Source: Octopus vulgaris
Lineage: Eukaryota
Direction of reading: 5' to 3'
Length of the DNA stretch: 64,000 nt
Assembly (NCBI GenBank): GCA_951406725.2
Contig: OX597838.1
Span: 37,696,001 to 37,760,000 of the forward strand
A program made the position numbers and the translations under genes. The notes under the pieces were generated by a model. The model did no database searches. It worked only from the letters and a program-made list of their open reading frames with translations, and was not told the DNA's origin. Numbering within the stretch: the first letter of the stretch is position 1; each line of letters opens with the position of its first letter. Below, in pieces: positions 4,312 through 36,678 of the stretch.

Positions 4312-4317
<6 letters not shown>

Positions 4318-5946
4318 AGCAACGCATGCAAGATAGCTACAGACAAAATAATTAAAGTCCCTAATCCTAATGACCTCAAATTGAGACCCATAATAGCAGG
4401 TCCCGCATGCGAAACCCACCGCCTCAGTAACTTTTTAGACACCCTGTTAAAACCACTCCTCAAACATGTCAAAAGCTATATAAGGGACGACTTAGATATG
4501 CTCAATCACCTACCGAATACTATAAACAAAAACACCATACTGGTATCCTTCGATGTAGTCAACCTCTACTCCAATATCCCCCACAACCTAGGACTAGAGG
4601 CAATCCAATTCTGGCTAGAGAATCACGCCAACGAACTACCACACCGCATCAAAAAAGAATTTGTGATAGAAGGGGTTAAATTCATCCTGGAAAATAACTT
4701 CTTCGCCTTCAATGACAACTTCTACCGACAAAAATCGGGGACTGCGATGGGTACACGAATGGCCCCCTCCTTTGCCAACCTAGTCATAGGATACCTAGAG
4801 ATCAGTCTGTATCGTAAGGTTCTAGAAAGATATGGCAGCCCTTTCTCCATCTACATAGAAAACAACTGGAAGAGATATCTAGATGACTGTTTCATCCTTT
4901 GGCATAAAAATATAGAAAAACTCATAGAATTCCAGAAAATTTTAAACGGACTGGACGTAAACATCCAATTCACGATGGAATATAGCCAACAACAACTCCC
5001 CTTCCTCGATATCCTCATTAAGAAAGCTAATAATATAATAGAAACAGACATATACTATAAGCCTACAGACTCTAAGCAATATCTTCCATTCAATTCATGC
5101 CACCCCAGACACACCAGGATGAATATCCCCTTCAATCTAGCAAAAAGGATATGCACTATAGTCTCTAACGCAAACACCAGAGACACACGACTACAAGAAC
5201 TAAAAGATACCCTAATCACCAGGAACTATCCACCTTCACTTATTGACAAGTGCATTCAACGTGCCCTTCAACTTAACATCAAGGAACTGAGACATCCCAA
5301 ATCAAAGAAAAACTTACAACCAAAAGCCTTACCATACATCTCCACACACAACCCTCTCAATAACGAAGCCTTCGACACCATCCTCCACAACATACCCCTC
5401 CTAAAAAAAGACCACAGAATGAACACAATCCTCCAAACACACACGATCATAAAAAGCAAAAGACAGCCTAGATCCATGAAAAGTCTCCTTACACAAGCCC
5501 GAATTCACTCTTCAACACAGAAGCCGACAGTAAAAAAATGTGGAAGACCCAATTGCGGGATATGCGACTATCTAATCGAGGGTTCGGAGTTCTCCTTCAA
5601 ACAGGGACAACGGTTTACAGTGAAAAGCAACTTCACATGTGCTTCGGAGAACCTAATATACTCACTAACCTGCTCCGGGTGTCAAGAGCAGTACATAGGC
5701 CAAACAAAAAATGGTTTGCGTAAACGAATGGCCCTGCACAGATCCCAGATAAAAATTCCCCAAAACAGAAAAATAGCTTTTAGCCAACACATAGATACTT
5801 GCGCCAACAAAAAAACACCAAACTTCAGAATTTTCCCCCTCTACCAATTTAGGGACGATACAACCTCGAGACAAAGAATAAGTAAAGAAAATCTCTTTAT
5901 TACAAAATACAAGCCACTTCTTAACGGGTCTACGACAAACAATTAA
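4312..5946 (+). CDS. Penelope-like element RT + GIY-YIG endonuclease, 5'-truncated, open frame of about 545 codons
   Basis: LRPIIAG, SFDVVNLYSNI, QKSGTAMG, WKRYLDDCF, LPFLDI, YYKPT, SCHP; CGRPNCGIC zinc linker (Neptune-type); LIYSLTC..C...YIGQT..LRKRMALH GIY-YIG. The ORF-track N-terminus (4222-4311) is (TA)n read-through. Confidence 0.93.
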
Positions 5947-6673
5947 TATACCTCAACTTTAGAATAAAAGAAAAAAATATATATACACACACAAATACTA
6001 CACTCCATAGAATCCATTACTAATCAGCCCCTTCATAGCTATATTTACACCCATTCATATTCTCCCTTCTCTGTTTTTTTCTTCTTCTTCTTCTTCATCA
6101 TCATCGTTATCATCATCATCGGCGTCATCATCATCACCACCATCTTCTCCTTCTCCTTCTTCTTCTTCTTCTTCTTCTTCTTCTTCTTCTTCTTCTTCTT
6201 CTTCTTCTTCTTCTTCTTCTTCTTCTTCTTCATCATCGTTATCATCATCATCGTCGTCATAATCATCACCACCATCACCATCATCTTCTCCTTCTCCTTC
6301 TTCTTCTTCTTCTTCTTCTTCTTCTTCTTCTTCTTCTTCTCCACCCCCTACCCCTTAAGTTTGTCACTAATGTTTTTTAGTATAACACCTACGCTAATTC
6401 TATAAACAATCCTGAATTGAACTGAGACTGCCAGCCGCCACTGACCATTCAAAATACGACCATCAGGGCACTCCCAGATTCTCCCACCCCCCTTTCCTCA
6501 CCAGCCTTCCCTCTACTACCCTACCAAGAACTCACAACTACCTCGAACACACAAGTGCAAACAAGGGAGTCAGAGAAAGGCAGAATGCCACTTAAATCTG
6601 AACACTACTATAGAAATATTCTTTTAAAAAAACTTTTCTTCTAATTTTTCTAAATTTAATTATTTAATCGTTA

Positions 6674-6711
6674 CAGTTGAAAAGGTCTCAAAATGACCGA
6701 AACCGGTACTG
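6674..6711 (+). ncRNA. Minimal hammerhead variant in the PLE 3' end
   Basis: cag-TTGAAAA-ggtc tcaaaat gacc-GAAA-ccgg-TA-ctg; palindromic stem III; core reads U3/A8 instead of C3/G8. Confidence 0.6.
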
Positions 6712-7809
6712 AAATGTTCACTATAAAATTATTTTAGCATTTTCTATTTTTTACTTGTTTTTTCATATATATATATATATATACATATATATACCTATCT
6801 ATGTATGTACATATCGGTACATCTGCATGTCTGTCTATCTATCTATTTATCTATCTATCTATTAAACCATTTATCTATTTACCCGGACTTATGCGCGCAC
6901 ACACTCCCGCTCAAACATACACACACAAATCCCTCATGCATACATATGACGTTCGTCTCATTCTTTCTAGAGCTATCTTAGTAGATCTACGTATGCAAAT
7001 CACTCTTTCGACATATTCCTTGTGTGTATGTACAGATACAACCACACACACAACCACACATATATTTGTATCTGTCTGTATTTAGATCATATCTGTTTCT
7101 ACTTACCTACCTATCTATATGTCTCTCTCCCGCTCTTTGTCTTACACACACACACACACTCTCTCTCTACCTACCTACCTATTTATCTAACTACCTATCT
7201 ATTTACCTCCCTGTCTACCAGCTTATTTGCCTACCTACCTATTTATCTACCTACCTACTTAACTATCTATCTATCTGTCTACCTATCTATATCTCTATCT
7301 ACTTATCTATCTGTCTGTCTGTATGTCTGTCTCTCTATCTATCTATTTACCTATCTATCTATCAACATTCACCATTTCGTATCTTAAGTCCATCCATTAG
7401 CTTCTGTACAGTGTTCCTTCTTTCTTAATGATACGACCTTACATTATTCAGTTTATATTATCGTTCTGAACTCTCTTTCGTCTCCAAACTCTACCCTGAT
7501 GTCCACGAATTCTAAACGGGTTGGAACCAACCAACGGCCATAGCTTCTGCACCTAATCTTACATCTTTCTCAACCCTCACGACTTTTCAGTCGATAGACT
7601 GCGGCCGTGCTACAGCATCTCCTTTGCAGGAAGTTTTTTGTCAAACGGATCAACCGTACTACTTATTTCTTTCGTTGAAGCCTCTAACCTACTTACGGTC
7701 TCTTGTGAAAGTGTTTCGTTACCATGGGTTACCGAACTGTAATGAGAGAGAAACATAGACACAAAGACACACACACACACACACACATATATACACACAT
7801 ACACACAGG

Positions 7810-10254: not shown

Positions 10255-11657
10255 TTGAGAGGTATTTGAGAGGGTGGTGAGATCTCGAATAACCCAATTT
10301 CTGGAAAGCAACAGACGGCTGATCTCCAACCAACATGGGTTCCGTAATGGAAGGGACTGCCTAACGCAGCTCCTGCATCACTTTGAGGACATTTTGAGAG
10401 CTTTGGGAGAGGGCTCCAACACCGATGTCATCTACCTTGATTTCAGTAAGGCCTTCGACAGGGTCGATCACAAGATCCTATTGAAAAAACTATCCAACAT
10501 TGGTGTCTCTGGAAAGTTACTGAAATGGATCAAGTGTTTCCTGACAGACAGATCTCAACATGTTGTAGTTGAAGGGGTAAAATCAAGCCCAGCCAAAGTC
10601 AGTAGTGGCGTTCCGCAAGGCACTGTGCTGGGCCCACTTCTTTTCATCATTTACATTAATGACATTAATGACATCATCAAGCACAGCAACATAAAAATCT
10701 TTGCAGATGACTCCAAGCTACAGAAGGTCATAAATGAGGCGAGTGACCGGACATGCCTTCAGTCAGATCTACTGGCTGTTATCCAATGGGCAGAAAAAAA
10801 CAATATGCTGCTGAACGAGGATAAATTTGAGCTAATCCACTTTGGAAAAGAGGATGCCCTGAAACTCCCATACTCCCTTCCTTCAGGTGAAACTCTCGCG
10901 GCGTCCAACAACATCAGAGACTTGGGAGTAATTGTGGACAACAACATAAGCTGGGCCACTCATATAAACACCAAAGTTGACATGGCCCGCAGAATGTGTT
11001 CCTGGATTCTCAGAACTTTCCAGTCGAGAGATATCCACACCATTATCCTTCTCTTCTCCACTTTTGCCCGACCCCACCTTGAATAATGTTGTCCACTGTG
11101 GTCTCCCCACACAATACAAGGTATCATAAAAGTTGAAGCACCACAAAGGGCAATCACAAAAAAGATAGATGGCATGACAGGCCTCGACTATTGGGGTCGA
11201 CTAGAAAAGCTAAAATCTATTCTCTCCAACGTCGTCGTGAGCGCTACATCATCTGCATGATGTGGAAAATATTCCATCAGCATTGCCCAAATGATGTTGG
11301 CATCACCTTTAAGGTACATCCAAGGCTTGGGCCCCGTGCCATCCGCCCAAAACAAAAATCGCACTCTCATCTCATAACAACAATACGGCACAATTATTTC
11401 ACCTCAATTGGCCCCAAAACACATTAAAACAGAAACTGACCCTATAGGGTTCAAGAAGTCTTTGGACAGATTCCTTCAAGAAATCCCGGATAAACCCCCT
11501 ACACCCGGATATGTCTCTGTAAACAATAACTCTCTACTTGAGTGGGCCATAGTGCCCAAATTCTGACTTGAAAGACTTCACCAGGTGGTGCTATTAAGTT
11601 AGACATGGCCTGGGCCAATAATGGCCGAAACCTATTAAAGTATCAAAATATCAAAGT
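10255..11657 (+). mobile_element. 5'-truncated CR1-group LINE (RT pseudogene plus 3' UTR)
   Basis: [41 protein letters not shown]; stop at 11084 and later frameshifts; (TATCAAAR)2 tail. Confidence 0.9.
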
Positions 11658-20910: not shown

Positions 20911-21420
20911 CGTAATAAAGGGTAGATTATTGGGTGTATCTGGAGTGTTTTGCGTTTTTCTTAGTTCTTCGATATTTATGGCATTGCCACGTTCTATTCC
21001 GTTGTCTATTAACATTAATGGATATTGTCTTTTTAGTAGTACTTCTTTTAGTTCCTGGAGTCTTCTATTGTGAATTTCAGGGTTTGAGGCAATTGTGCAG
21101 ATTCTTCTTGATAGATTGAAGGGGATTTTATTCTTCGTGCGTTTGGGATGTCATGAAGAGAACAGTAACTATTGTTTAGAATGTGTCTGTTTGAAGTGAA
21201 TATCTGTTTCAATGTTTTTATCTCTTTTGATGGTTAGAATATCCAGAAATGGTTGATGAGTTTTAATGAATTCCATTGTAAGGTTAATATTTTGGCTATG
21301 CTGTTGATTAGAATTTTTGAAATCTGTAAGTTGTCCAGATGTGTACATCCACAGGATTAGGCAGTCATCTAAGTTACGTTTCCAGTGTTTTAGTCGATAT
21401 TTGTGGGAGTTCAAGCCATA
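20890..21420 (-). pseudogene. Decayed PLE RT/thumb fragment
   Basis: WKRNLDDCLILW, QPFLDILTIK, IETDIHFKQT; paralogous to the 4312 ORF. Confidence 0.85.
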
Positions 21421-24661: not shown

Positions 24662-25866
24662 TTACATATCGTCCTCGAAATAGCTTGTGCCCGCGCCCTC
24701 CACCATCATACACGCCTCCCTCAGAACGTAATCAAGTTCCGAGTTCGCGTCGCCCGGGACCAAGCTATAATCTTCATTGAGCTCCTTTAGCCCAAGCGTC
24801 ACGTCGAACGCCACGGCCTCCGCAGCTATCTGCGGAGGCCATTCGGGGTCCTGTGTGAAGGCTAAAGGTGCTCCCTTGTGGTACTCTTCCATCATTTTTT
24901 TTTTCAATGTCTCCTCCTCTATAGAAGAGGACCAATACGTTCAGTTCTTTCGTTGGCGGCACAGTTCCCGCCAACGTCTGCGGCTCATGGATATCAGCCG
25001 CCCGACCTCTCTTTCTTTTTCTCCTCCTTCTTTTGGGGGAGACTGCTGACCCAGAGGACTCCGTCACTAGACACGGGGGATCGCTATCCCCCTCCGCCAC
25101 CTGAGCGTTCTTTGGCGAGCAACCATTGTTGCTCGCCTGTTTCTTTCTTTTCGTGGAGGCAACCTCCTCCACGACTTCCGCCGTCTCCCCCTCCAATGAG
25201 GGGGCGGCGGGCGCCTTTTCCCCTTCATGCTCCGGGGCACCACCACGGCCCCCGGGACAATTCCTCTTGATATGTGCGGGCTTCAGGCACAGGTGACACT
25301 TGGGGGGGGCGTCCCTCGAGTATCACCGGGTACCTGTGCCCAGCCATTCTCAGGAAGTCCGGGAATTTCATTTCTCCCACGGCCACCGGTGTCCACAGGG
25401 TCAAAGTTGCCTTTGACCCCTCCCAGGCGACCGCGGGAGCCATTTTCACACTCAGTAGCCTGGGTCCGCTATCCCCCAGGCCTCGCCGGATGGTCTTCTC
25501 GATCCATTCCGCCTCCGTGCCCGAGGGCAGCCCACAAACCCAGGCTCTTTTTACTTTTCTGCCACAATACGAGGGGAGGAACAAAATTTCCTCTCCCTCC
25601 AGTGGCTCGCTAGCAAATCTGCTAGCTTCCTCGGGGGTACCAAACAGCAACCACACCGTTGCAAATTTAGTCCCCCGAGAAATAAACTTTATCGTTGGTA
25701 GGCGGTCCCCCAACTCTCTCTCTATGGTGCTCCTGTCGAAGAGGGCGATAGCTCCACGCGACCTAGAACAGGTTCGTAGGACCACCGTCCTCTTCTCAAG
25801 ACTTTCAATCCACTGCTTGGGTGGGGCAACCTCCCATTCCAAAGCAGTGGTTTCTTTTGCTGCCAT
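24662..25866 (-). CDS. LINE ORF1 / gag-like protein with zinc knuckle, about 400 aa after removing two homopolymer frameshifts
   Basis: MAAKETT...YPVILEGRPP joins, across the G8 run near 25305, KCHLCLKPAHIKRNCP (CX2CX4HX4C), then a basic PKRRRRKRKR tract; second shift at the T9 run near 24900; ends YFEDDM*. Confidence 0.75.
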
Positions 25867-25880
25867 GATTTTGAAAAAAA

Positions 25881-26204
25881 GTTCAACTAAAAGTTCAAAG
25901 TCCAATAAGAAAAAAACACAATGACAGAACAGAAAGACAGAGCAGAGAAAAGGACGAAGGAAGACAGTTCAAATAATGGCAACACAGTTCAACTAAAAGT
26001 TCAAAGTCTAATAAGAAAAAAAACATAATGACAGAACAGAAAGACAGAGCAGAGAAAAGGACGAAGGAAGACAGTTCAAATAATGGCAACACAGTTCAAC
26101 TAAAAGTTCAAAGTCTAATAAGAAAAAAAACATAATGACAGAACAGAAAGACAGAGCAGAGAAAAGGACGAAGGAAGACAGTTCAAATAATGGCAACACA
26201 GTTC
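25881..26204. repeat. Three copies of a 106-107 bp tandem repeat in the element's 5' UTR
   Basis: gttcaactaaaagttcaaagtc starts at 25881, 25987 and 26094. Confidence 0.95.
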
Positions 26205-26665
26205 TGCAACTGGTAATCCTCACGAAACAGGGTACTCCAGTTGCAGCACACTTGGTTCTCCGTGGTAAATCCAAGCACAATTGGTTCTCCGTGGTAAATC
26301 CAAGCGAACAAATTAATTTTTAAGTGGGGCTATGCCTCCTTAAAATACACAATTCTCACTAAAAGGTGAGACAATAAATGCGCCAACAGGCAGAACAAAT
26401 ACATCCGAAGCAAAGTGAAGCTTATTACTCGCAGAAAAGTGTTTACACTAATTAATATTAATGCCAAAAAAGTATTAACGGCAAGCAATAAACCTCACTA
26501 TGCTTCCAAAAATATCCAAAATGTCCTACCTGTTGCCGTAAAATGTTCAATATTTCACGTTAACACTTGACATTTGCCGGAGCAAAAAAAACACGTCTGT
26601 CTGGTAAGAAGCTACTTACCACACAGCCACTCCTGCGCCTATATCTATCTATCTATCTATCTATA

Positions 26666-26727
<62 letters not shown>

Positions 26728-26733
26728 ACTATA

Positions 26734-26814
<81 letters not shown>

Positions 26815-27076
26815 CAATTAAGGACAACTACTTAATAAGGAAAACTTAACAAGAAATTGTCAGGTAGATAGCGTGAAAACCTCATAAGAGAATAAATTTC
26901 GAAAATAATTATTTCTTATTGAACATATTAATTTATATATAGAGGGCATTATACATACATGCCAGCGGGCATTATACATACATGCCACACGCTAAGAGGG
27001 ACAATTAGTCATTTCTACCAAAAATATTACTAATCCCACCGAGTGCAATTTTTCAAAGTAAGACATTTAAAAATAT

Positions 27077-27124
27077 AGACCTGTATCACAGTGATTTCAT
27101 ACTTACGTACTCATCAGCAGGCCT
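27077..27124 (-). ncRNA. Canonical type I hammerhead ribozyme
   Basis: aggcctg-CTGATGA-gtac gtaa gtat-GAAA-tcac t gtga-TA-caggtct. Confidence 0.9.
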
Positions 27125-27830
27125 GAATGTATCATACATAAACAAACGACCCTGCCCCGCTTAAGTCGATCAGCTAACTGATCAACATCAACGAAGCACA
27201 TGGGTGAGTTTACATATATTGCATCCTGTAAATGGCATACTTTTACGAATTGCATTTCGGGAGAGGAAAAGTTTTTCGGAATAAAAATTTAGCAATTAAG
27301 GACAACTACTTAATAAGGAAAACTTAACAAGAAATTGTCAGGTAGATAGCGTGAAAACCTCATAAGAGAATAAATTTCGAAAATAATTATTTCTTATTGA
27401 ACATATTAAAATGTCTTACTTTGAAAAATTGCACTCGGTGGGATTAGTAATATTTTTGGTAGAAATGACTAATTGTCCCTCTTAGCGTGTGGCATGTATG
27501 TATAATGCCCGCTGGCATGTATGTATAATGCCCTCTATATATAAATTAATATGTTCAATAAGAAATAATTATTTTCGAAATTTATTCTCTTATGAGGTTT
27601 TCACGCTATCTACCTGACAATTTCTTGTTAAGTTTTCCTTATTAAGTAGTTGTCCTTAATTGCTAAATTTTTATTCCGAAAAAACTTTTCCTCTCCCGAA
27701 ATGCAATTCGTAAAAGTATGCCATTTACAGGATGTAATATATGTAAACTCACCCATGTGCTTCGTTGATGTTGATCAGTTAGCTGATCGACTTAAGCGGG
27801 CAGGGTCGTTTGTTTATGTATGATACATTC

Positions 27831-27878
27831 AGGCCTGCTGATGAGTACGTAAGTATGAAATCACTGTGATACAGGTCT
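27831..27878 (+). ncRNA. Canonical type I hammerhead ribozyme
   Basis: Identical motif on the plus strand; predicted cleavage after 27871. Confidence 0.9.
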
Positions 27879-28013
27879 ATATTTTTAAATGTCTTACTTT
27901 GAAAAATTGCACTCGGTGGGATTAGTAATATTTTTGGTAGAAATGACTAATTGTCCCTCTTAGCGTGTGGCATGTATGTATAATGCCCGCTGGCATGTAT
28001 GTATAATGCCCTC

Positions 28014-28076
<63 letters not shown>

Positions 28077-34311: not shown

Positions 34312-34535
34312 TATACACATGCATATATATATGTATATAGATAGATATATGCATATAAACTTCATCGGTACCTCCCCACATTTCAGCAAGTCTTTCCATC
34401 TTTGTTTCATTTACTATTATTATTTTTTTTTTTCTTGTTGTTGCTGTTTCTGTTTCTGGGTTTGTTTCGTTTTCGGCGCTCACAGCATTCACAAACACGT
34501 ACTTCGGGACACAAATGATACATACATATAAACAT

Positions 34536-34622
<87 letters not shown>

Positions 34623-34742
34623 TATATACTTATATATATACATACATATATATATACATATACATATATATATATATACACATATGTATATATATACATA
34701 TATATATATACACATACATATATATATACATATATATATACA

Positions 34743-36678
34743 CAAGAACAAAATCCCCAGAGAGAGGAAAATTCTAATGAGACGGCGTACAAAAATTTCA
34801 AATCGCCTAAACAAACAAATTGAAAACAGTGAAAAGTCCCGCCTGAAAATAAAACTGTTGGAAATTGAAAAATGTCTGCAACTCTCCCATGAAATAGAAA
34901 GAGCTGACAAAGAAGCCTGGGCTATAGACAACATAAAATCTAACCCCAGAGCTTTCTACAGGTATGCCAAAGAAACTGCTACGTTTCACTGTAGGATAGG
35001 GCCACTCCTTGAAAAGGATGGCACACTCACAGGAAATCCAATGAGGGTAAGTGAAATACTAAATGAGCAATTCAAGAGTGTTTTCACTCCACTCCTAGGG
35101 CATTTTCAAGTCAGCATTCCAACTGATTTCTTTACCACTGCAGATATAAAATCAGAGGCAGCGATGATTGATTACATCAATATAAAGGAAGGTGATGTAA
35201 TAAAGGCTATAGATGAAATGAAAGCAAACTCAGCTACTGGCCCCGATGGATTCCCAGCAATCCTTCTAAATGTATGTAAGAGAGTCCTAGCAAGACCACT
35301 GCAGTTCCTCTTTCAGAGCTTCCTTGCAACTGGCAAACTTCCAAGAAAACTGAAGGAAGGTAAAATATGCCCTATTCATAAAAGAGCTAGCAGAGCGGAG
35401 GCCAAGAACTACAGACCTACCTCTCTGACCTTACACATCAGCAAGGTCATGGAACGAATAGTCAGAAGGAAACTAATCACCTTCCTTGAAGAAAATGACT
35501 TGCTGCCTGACACCCAACATGGTTTCCGACCAGGAAGAAGCTGCCTAACCCAGCTCCTACAACACTGGGTGCTGAAATGACTGCTCAACCACTCAAATTT
35601 GGAAGTCATATATCTCGACTTTGCAAAGGCCTTTGATAAAGTCGATCATGGAATGATATGTCACAAACTGCGTGATCTTGGCATAGTTGGAAAATTGGGA
35701 GAATGGCTTCATGACTTTCTGACTACCAGGTGGTAGTTGCCACTTCTATTAACACGCAAATAGTGAGCGGTGTTTCGCAGGGCACTGTTTTGGGACCACT
35801 ACTGTTCATAATAGCCCTCTCAGACATGCCCTCAGCCACGCAGAGCCACGATCACAAGTTATGCAGATGATACAAAAGTTTCACAGGCAATACAGAACGC
35901 TGAAGACACTATGCACCTGCAATGTGAGCTGGACAAAATATACAAGTGGGCTGAAAAGAATAGCATGCAGTTCAATGCTGAAAGTTTCAAGCTTTATGCT
36001 ATCAGCATGCAACACTAAATACAATATCCAATAAATACACTGGACCTGGAGGGATTGCAATCCCAGAGGCACAATCAGTGTGAGACCTGGGTATTTACAT
36101 GAGTAATGATGCAACCTTTCATGTGCATGTTGCTACATTGGCAATGAAATGTAGGCGGCTGACCGGATGGATTCTTAGAACCATTAGAACAAGAGACCAG
36201 GAAACCATGATGGTCCTCTGGAGGACACTTGTCCTAAGTCACTTTGACTATTGCCCTCAGCTATGGTCACCATCCAGTGTCAAGTTAATCACAGAACTTG
36301 AGGCGATCCAACGAAGCTACACGAAGGAGATAGCCTCTGTGCAGCATATAAGCTACTGGGAAAGACTCAAGAGATTAAGACTCTATTCCTTAGAGCGTAG
36401 GCGAGAAAGATATGCCATAATATACATCTGGAAGATCCTAGAAGGACTTGTCCCAAACTTTGGCATCGAGAGTTACACAAATACTAGAACTGGGCGTCAC
36501 TGCATAGTGCCAAGAACTCCAAATTTACCATCAAGATGTAGGACACGATACTGTGATAGCCTGGGCTTCAGAGGTCCACAGCTCTTCAAAAGGACCTGAG
36601 AGACCTGAATGGGGAGGATGCAGATGTCTTTAAAATAAAACTGGATCTCTTCCTGTCAGGTGTCCCAGATGAACCAAC
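34743..36678 (+). mobile_element. CR1-group LINE ORF2 fragment (pseudogene)
   Basis: [57 protein letters not shown]; stops and frameshifts. Confidence 0.9.

Follow-up and report, generated by a model that had tools for sequence, protein, structure and literature searches.

Circular RNA is reported for retrozymes of coral, mussel, and axolotl in the extracts of PMC7229834 used here, which name PLEs as candidate helpers, and the available portion of a bioRxiv preprint (10.64898/2026.07.22.740005) ties retrozymes to the pseudo-LTRs (pLTRs) of PLEs. Inverted PLE copies with a tail that is often one-sided are described in the consulted sections of PMC8557442 and PMC3846280; the latter proposes self-priming, and the former ascribes tandem and inverted PLE structures to still undefined features of the transposition cycle. 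In vitro, according to the parts of PMC11167929 cited here, a PLE protein predicted to act as a dimer cuts and extends both strands of the target, and RT initiates at two sites within the RNA, one at each boundary of the tail.

We analyzed a stretch of 64,000 nucleotides from Octopus vulgaris (contig OX597838.1, positions 37,696,001 to 37,760,000; hereafter, the window), in which a non-coding 478-nt unit (27410-27887) is arranged as two head-to-head arms within a TA microsatellite (locus, 26642-28075). A sequence-only reading of this DNA had described near-identical inverted arms, each longer than one unit and lying in a microsatellite, and this description was borne out: the arms differ by a single substitution and by two indels in homopolymers, three differences in all. 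The left arm (26813-27409, minus strand, 597 nt) consists of unit positions 137-478 followed by 1-255 and ends 3' at a fixed site, site B; its last 119 nt (26813-26931, minus strand) form a tail that reaches from site A to site B. The right arm (27410 to ∼28024, plus strand) consists of unit positions 1-478 followed by 1-137 and ends without a tail at fixed site A, where it runs into (TA)n. Both arms face outward: their 5'-truncated ends meet at 27409/27410 with a 1-nt overlap, and their 3' ends enter the microsatellite. Direct repeats at the locus have a period of 478, and inverted matches have 95 to 99% identity. Immediately 5' of site A lies a 23-nt tandem repeat that is predicted to form a hairpin (27490-27533, plus strand; also 26944-26987 and 27968-28011). 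The monomer has a GC fraction of 0.34, and among the open reading frames at the locus none of at least 120 amino acids (aa) was found over the element. By sequence and repeat calls, the left target (26642-26812) is (TATC)n(TA)n and then (GA)8, which touches the element, and the right target is (TA)n (28014-28075). The (GA)8 run adjoining the left arm is a possible priming stutter. Runs of (CT)n between the element 3' end and (TA)n were observed at 3 of 117 loci (here at 26797-26812 and at loci L100 and L120), with a run at L095 resembling those of L100 and L120 by eye; such runs possibly reflect repeated copying as RT begins, or else targets that were compound microsatellites.

The genome searched comprised 2.80 Gb in 227 contigs. 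The unit search returned at least 196 matches on many contigs (the best 39 of 1302 candidates scored), and an exact 31-nt hammerhead pattern matched the genome 447 times (control, 0). Exact patterns for the two arm ends gave 158 forward matches for the B end, with 377 reverse matches that include repeated rows, and 129 matches for the A end. We analyzed 117 loci: 39 top hits, a set that favors long copies, plus 40 loci found by the B end and 38 by the A end, taken in contig order. Copies lie scattered, with a separate junction for each, and arrays hold 2 to 31 head-to-tail units with a type I hammerhead motif per unit. The unit considered here (subfamily S1) has related subfamilies of 459 nt (S2) and 490 nt (S3; ∼72% alike where it aligns best). 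An ORF combining RT and GIY-YIG is absent from the unit and its arrays. The sequence-only reading had named, as one case that would undo its proposal, copies that are all fixed-end pLTRs attached to a coding PLE; at 0 of 130 loci did the unit occupy the pLTR position of a PLE frame, a PLE fragment lay nearby in 5 of these 130, and none was found near the unit at 60 further loci. Contigs from three runs that we guessed to be RNA contain the unit at low depth, with no start, end, strand, or circle visible in them. As known here from sequence, the element is a further family of non-LTR retrozymes with a PLE insertion footprint, and the repeat family is young. The earlier proposal of a recently active, non-autonomous hammerhead retroelement of the retrozyme kind is supported.

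Each arm carries one type I hammerhead motif, at 27831-27878 on the plus strand in the right arm (from sequence, fold, and subfamily comparison; predicted cut after 27871) and at 27077-27124 on the minus strand in the left arm (mapped from the unit; predicted cut after 27084). With one hammerhead per arm, no unit-length monomer would be expected from this locus by double cleavage. The right-arm motif has a stem I of 7 bp, CUGAUGA, a stem II of 4 bp with a GUAA loop, and GAAA; stem III is AUCA/UGAU with a 3-nt loop, a short near-palindrome. By sequence, core positions C3-A9, G12-A14, A15.1-U16.1, and H17 and three helices, open at helix I, are all present. The motif had been called fully canonical, which holds for the core nucleotides and not for the whole: stem II of the S1 hammerhead opens with a G.U pair, stem III is short and near-palindromic, and Rfam hammerhead models gave no match against 26820-28010 up to an E value of 10. 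The numerous Rfam miRNA matches at the locus were dismissed as microsatellite noise. Across S1 to S3, the hammerhead core is kept while the stems change in a compensatory manner (stem I, CCUG/CAGG, CUUG/CAAG, and GCA/UGU; first pair of stem II, G.U, A-U, and G-C).

The monomeric hammerhead is predicted to fold at −9.4 kcal/mol, against a minimum of −12.4 kcal/mol, with a probability of 0.003, and two copies are predicted to co-fold as a double hammerhead at −30.5 kcal/mol. Within 101 nt around the motif, no gain in predicted fold over shuffles was detected (z, 0.13). The S1 monomer folded as a circle reaches a predicted −128.7 kcal/mol versus −92.1 ± 6.4 in 60 shuffles, corresponding to a z of −5.7 (−5.8 for S2 and −4.8 for S3), and in all three subfamilies the antisense strand is predicted to fold far worse than the sense strand. 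These modeled energies point to selection on the RNA structure of the unit; a circle is not thereby proven. In the predicted folds of S1 to S3, a conserved helix (UAGCGUG/CACGCUA) encloses site A, and sites A and B each lie just 3' of a hairpin. Site A has TA repeats that resemble the target.

Other hammerhead repeats were observed alongside this family. At L161 (915-1810), a different family with a 485-nt period, core CUGACGA, and palindromic stem III adjoins an S1 insertion; its short inverted arm ends ∼85 nt before the end of the long arm. At L028 (1-790), an older, diverged relative of the unit is arranged head-to-head and has a hammerhead-like motif with compensatory stems.

In the 117 loci, arm 3' ends fell at site A (unit position ∼136) or site B (∼255), 119 nt apart, and merged into (TA)n, and only the 5' ends varied, being spread over the unit. 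These loci contained 83 head-to-head pairs, comprising 77 A+B, 0 A+A, and 0 B+B, together with five with one odd end and an unclassifiable old diverged relative. At loci found by their A end, all 24 pairs included a B partner, and at loci found by their B end, an A partner was present in all 26 classifiable pairs, with 3 odd. We observed 13 A+B pairs in 27 S2 loci and 9 A+B pairs plus one B+B pair in 27 S3 loci. Together, S2, S3, and two intact PLE families of the same genome gave 56 mixed and 2 same-site pairs. Over the five families of this one genome, 135 classifiable pairs divide into 133 mixed and 2 same-site; the exceptions, B+B at L224 and L240, count against the explanation we prefer below, as do the five S1 pairs with an odd end and L180, which may be a further B+B. 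Fixed 3' ends and A+B pairing rule out free or random permutation of the arms. The two independent permutations that had been read from this locus found no support, given 3' ends that are fixed and paired as A with B, on arms that look to come from one source RNA. The insertions show the footprint of PLEs, namely, fixed 3' ends with an optional tail, variable 5' truncation, an inverted 5' copy, and an AT-rich target.

The intact PLE families used for comparison include one represented in the window. A frame at 4315-5943 matches RT and GIY-YIG and belongs to PLE1, which has many identical intact copies, a C-terminal endonuclease, and a CX4CXXC linker; the last two features fit the Neptune/Nematis description in the consulted part of PMC8557442. 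PLE1 lies in (TA)n and has two end sites 34 nt apart, with 20 mixed pairs and 1 same-site pair in 30 loci; PLE2 (4271-bp unit) has end sites ∼46 nt apart, with 14 mixed pairs in 20 loci. The suggestion that a PLE is the likely mobilizer of the unit is strengthened by the TA target and by this two-end, head-to-head footprint. No clear similarity of the unit to PLE1, PLE2, or PLE3 was found, these being three families of many more PLE candidates, and the lack of an autonomous partner among them counts against our preferred explanation.

Several further features of these elements were observed. A 5'-truncated, very young PLE1 copy (4312-6772, plus strand; full unit, 4433 bp) sits in (TA)n and ends at the tail-less site, and its minimal hammerhead at ∼6675-6712 is a U3:A8 variant, with C3 replaced by U3 and G8 by A8. 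Read by eye at L280 and L307, PLE2 carries a minimal hammerhead with core CCGAAGA, and PLE3 carries the U3:A8 variant. Two overlapping frames with a T run at the overlap were seen in both PLE1 (∼411 + 784 aa; L061, G000:C9:10669000-10678999) and PLE2 (∼430 + 775 aa; L280, G000:C1:27839500-27849499). The PLE1 overlap contains an in-frame T_TTT_TTA of slippery-heptamer form, a candidate for −1 ribosomal frameshifting or for an intron acceptor. Elsewhere in the window are LINE RT fragments and a decayed PLE fragment (10259-11086, 34519-36599, and 20917-21420). Overlapping GC-rich frames at 24774-25968 (minus strand) and 25880-26204, one with a CCHC-like motif and without a Pfam match, adjoin three copies of a 107-bp tandem repeat and are possibly a LINE ORF1 and 5' end.

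Partner arms resemble each other more than they resemble arms elsewhere. In the 49 of 77 A+B pairs in which divergence was testable (at least 80 shared positions), partner arms diverged by a mean of 0.86%, versus 3.1% to other loci, and the own partner was nearest or tied in 37. Rare variants were common to partner arms in 43 of 95 cases versus 37 of 4749 (0.8%) across loci. In 13 of 77 pairs (11 under stricter mapping), the stopping points of the two arms on the template were no more than 15 nt apart, where permutation gave a mean of 2.7; 5' ends that agree modulo one unit showed no excess over absolute matches. The A arm lay inside the B arm in 35 pairs and the B arm inside the A arm in 15, neither was inside the other in 26, including the locus described here, and one was borderline. 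Of the 77 junctions, 41 have microhomology of 1 to 7 nt, 31 contain inserted letters, 4 are blunt, and the remaining one has a longer overlap. Judged by these sequence comparisons, partner arms look as if they were copied from one source RNA. Part of their identity could stem from gene conversion between inverted arms, and inter-arm flips could be a source of the pairs in which neither arm is inside the other; the variant pattern of L075 fits inter-arm exchange, which suggests that conversion or inversion after insertion may contribute.

Whether the template was a circle is a separate matter. The predicted cut site was crossed without a scar in 128 of 196 arms, and just 4 of 196 arms start at unit positions 460-464. 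Seamless passage and the scarcity of starts there indicate that the templates were uncleaved multimers or ligated circles, and cleaved linear monomers were rejected as the main template. Arms longer than one unit are not the rule, making up 80 of 196. The earlier argument from permutation to a circle fails; uncleaved multimers explain passage of the cut site equally well. Nine of 15 multi-unit loci have private unit changes only, as one circle would give; in 5 of 15, substitutions recur in several units and there are signs of later turnover, and a sixth has a shared homopolymer deletion only. Such recurrence, which has a period of 2 in L026 and of nearly 3 in L075, calls for multimeric templates or later turnover, and it undoes the use of arrays as proof of a rolling circle. 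Recurring unit variants were also seen in a 15.6-kb head-to-head insertion with 31 units in its B arm (L173-L174, G000:C1:64639650-64655250). The common 5' stops are in line with a linear template, or with stalling at a shared point. By analogy with described retrozymes, we give circular RNA from this family about an even chance.

The explanation we prefer, and consider probable, is that this locus is a hammerhead retrozyme insertion in which the RT/GIY-YIG protein of a PLE nicked both (TA)n strands and primed one cDNA per nick on one RNA. Multi-unit loci would be transcribed and act as sources, and the hammerhead, probably in its double form, would cut some transcripts to ∼478-nt monomers, which might be ligated into circles. 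The PLE protein, probably a dimer, would bind the structured region around A and B, so that one RT would initiate at A and its partner at B, each on an AU-rich single strand immediately 3' of a hairpin. On a circular or multimeric template, both would proceed 5'-ward past the hammerhead site before halting at variable points; end-joining would then unite the two cDNA ends, and a single successful priming would leave a single arm. In its favor stand the pairing counts, the variants common to partner arms, the common 5' stops, the pairs with neither arm nested, the junctions, the hammerhead core kept across subfamilies, and the in vitro PLE reaction as a precedent. Further points weigh against this scheme: both cDNAs copying one stretch of RNA would require strand displacement, the monomeric hammerhead is predicted to lie above the minimum-energy fold, and in the cited parts of PMC11167929 priming occurs without homology and hammerhead cleavage is dispensable. 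The wider proposition that head-to-head PLE insertions in general arise from one enzyme dimer on one RNA, with a separate start site tied to each subunit, seems to us slightly better than a coin toss. If true, one rule would cover the partial tandems, inverted pLTR, and one-sided tail of PLEs. The retrozyme would then represent a minimal substrate, possibly a circular one, in which sequence similarity to the helper was lost and both start sites were preserved in a conserved fold.

Alternatively, a cDNA or antisense RNA could fold back and copy itself, after which the endonuclease would cut the hairpin at the other site and join it to the target. This idea, near the self-priming of PMC3846280 and the "EN-mediated resolution" of the tail in PMC8557442 (as given in their consulted sections), accounts for arm identity and one-sided tails, and it is in keeping with the nested pairs (A inside B in 35 of 77, B inside A in 15), the TA repeats of site A that resemble the target, and perfect fold-back junctions at palindromic words at L120, L129, and L142. 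However, simple fold-back cannot give the 26 non-nested pairs. Offsets of near-symmetric pairs go both ways (A further upstream in 8, B in 6, equal in 3), and a rescue demands frequent later inversion between short young arms. It also sits poorly with the two RT start sites that bound the tail in vitro (PMC11167929, in the parts cited), and we regard it as unlikely. Two RNAs, one per nicked strand, would dispense with strand displacement if an asymmetric complex forced A with B and a dominant source or conversion made the arms identical, and unit registers do differ between the arms of some arrays (L088, L152, and L075). Yet the rarity elsewhere of variants shared by partners (0.8% across loci) argues against few master sources, and the common 5' stop is enriched 4- to 5-fold; we find this quite unlikely. 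The unit might instead be a solo pLTR, shed from a coding PLE and amplified locally as a satellite with no RNA life. Higher-order patterns and signs of growth after insertion in L103 (31 units), L075, L026, and L152 would suit this, as would the pLTR origin proposed in 10.64898/2026.07.22.740005, where, in the portion available, one of nine tested dimers cleaved. Against it stand the lack of any unit contiguous with a PLE frame at the 130 and 60 loci surveyed, dispersed copies with their own junctions, and monomers of three subfamilies that are predicted to fold far better than shuffles and antisense, and we judge it very improbable. An artefact of assembly or of a fold-back read was also considered, in that four of four public contig sets do not bridge the junction, these being short contigs probably from other individuals. 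The asymmetric junction (137 versus 1), the different flanks, and the 83 comparable head-to-head pairs, which have different junctions and a fixed end rule, make such an artefact extremely unlikely.

The retrozyme class, inverted arms, and the one-sided tail are already published. In the main texts searched, largely from outside the subscription literature, we found neither a statement of strict A+B pairing nor a description of such a hammerhead family in octopus. Like the metazoan non-LTR retrozymes of PMC7229834 and 10.64898/2026.07.22.740005, as presented in the extracts used here, the octopus element is a tandem repeat of low GC (34%) and no coding capacity, in which every unit bears a type I hammerhead motif and the predicted monomer is strongly self-paired; it shares its genome with autonomous PLEs that have minimal hammerheads. 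Circular RNA and cleavage were demonstrated for those retrozymes, whereas the octopus unit is known from DNA. Monomers of 459 to 490 nt exceed the 170 to 400 nt of PMC7229834 and fall within the 51 to 972 bp of the preprint; the words "inverted" and "microsatellite" are absent from the consulted text of the former, and fixed ends, inverted arms, and TA targeting were not seen in that of the latter.

With EN+ PLEs, as described in the sections of PMC8557442 and PMC3846280 used here, the family shares head-to-head arms, 5' truncation, a microsatellite target, and a tail at one end. It differs in that the unit lacks an ORF, the tail measures 119 nt (∼90 nt in S3) rather than 30 to 40 bp, and the pairing, there an optional or "often" one-sided tail, is here counted and nearly strict. 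As in the in vitro system of PAc Poseidon (PMC11167929, parts cited), our scheme has two start sites that bound the tail, cutting and extension of both strands, an AT-rich target, and a probable dimer; the PAc sites, however, are adjacent, lie in an AC-rich stem loop, and lack homology to the target, while those of the octopus unit are separated by 119 nt and share the AU-rich character of the target. The cited parts of that study draw no connection from its pair of start sites to the paired arms of a single insertion. The pairing rule and the single-template reading are directly testable in this existing in vitro PLE system. The value of the family lies in its record of mechanism, 133 mixed versus 2 same-site pairs plus a sequence signal of one template. 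The insertion footprint, without recourse to shared sequence, also speaks for mobilization of retrozymes by PLE enzymes. A further point of comparison is L1 twin priming, in which a single RNA is primed from each end of the cut target and an inverted 5' part results; there, the two cDNAs copy separate parts of the RNA, and the second site varies. In the octopus family, by contrast, neither site varies, and the overlap between the cDNAs amounts to hundreds of bases.
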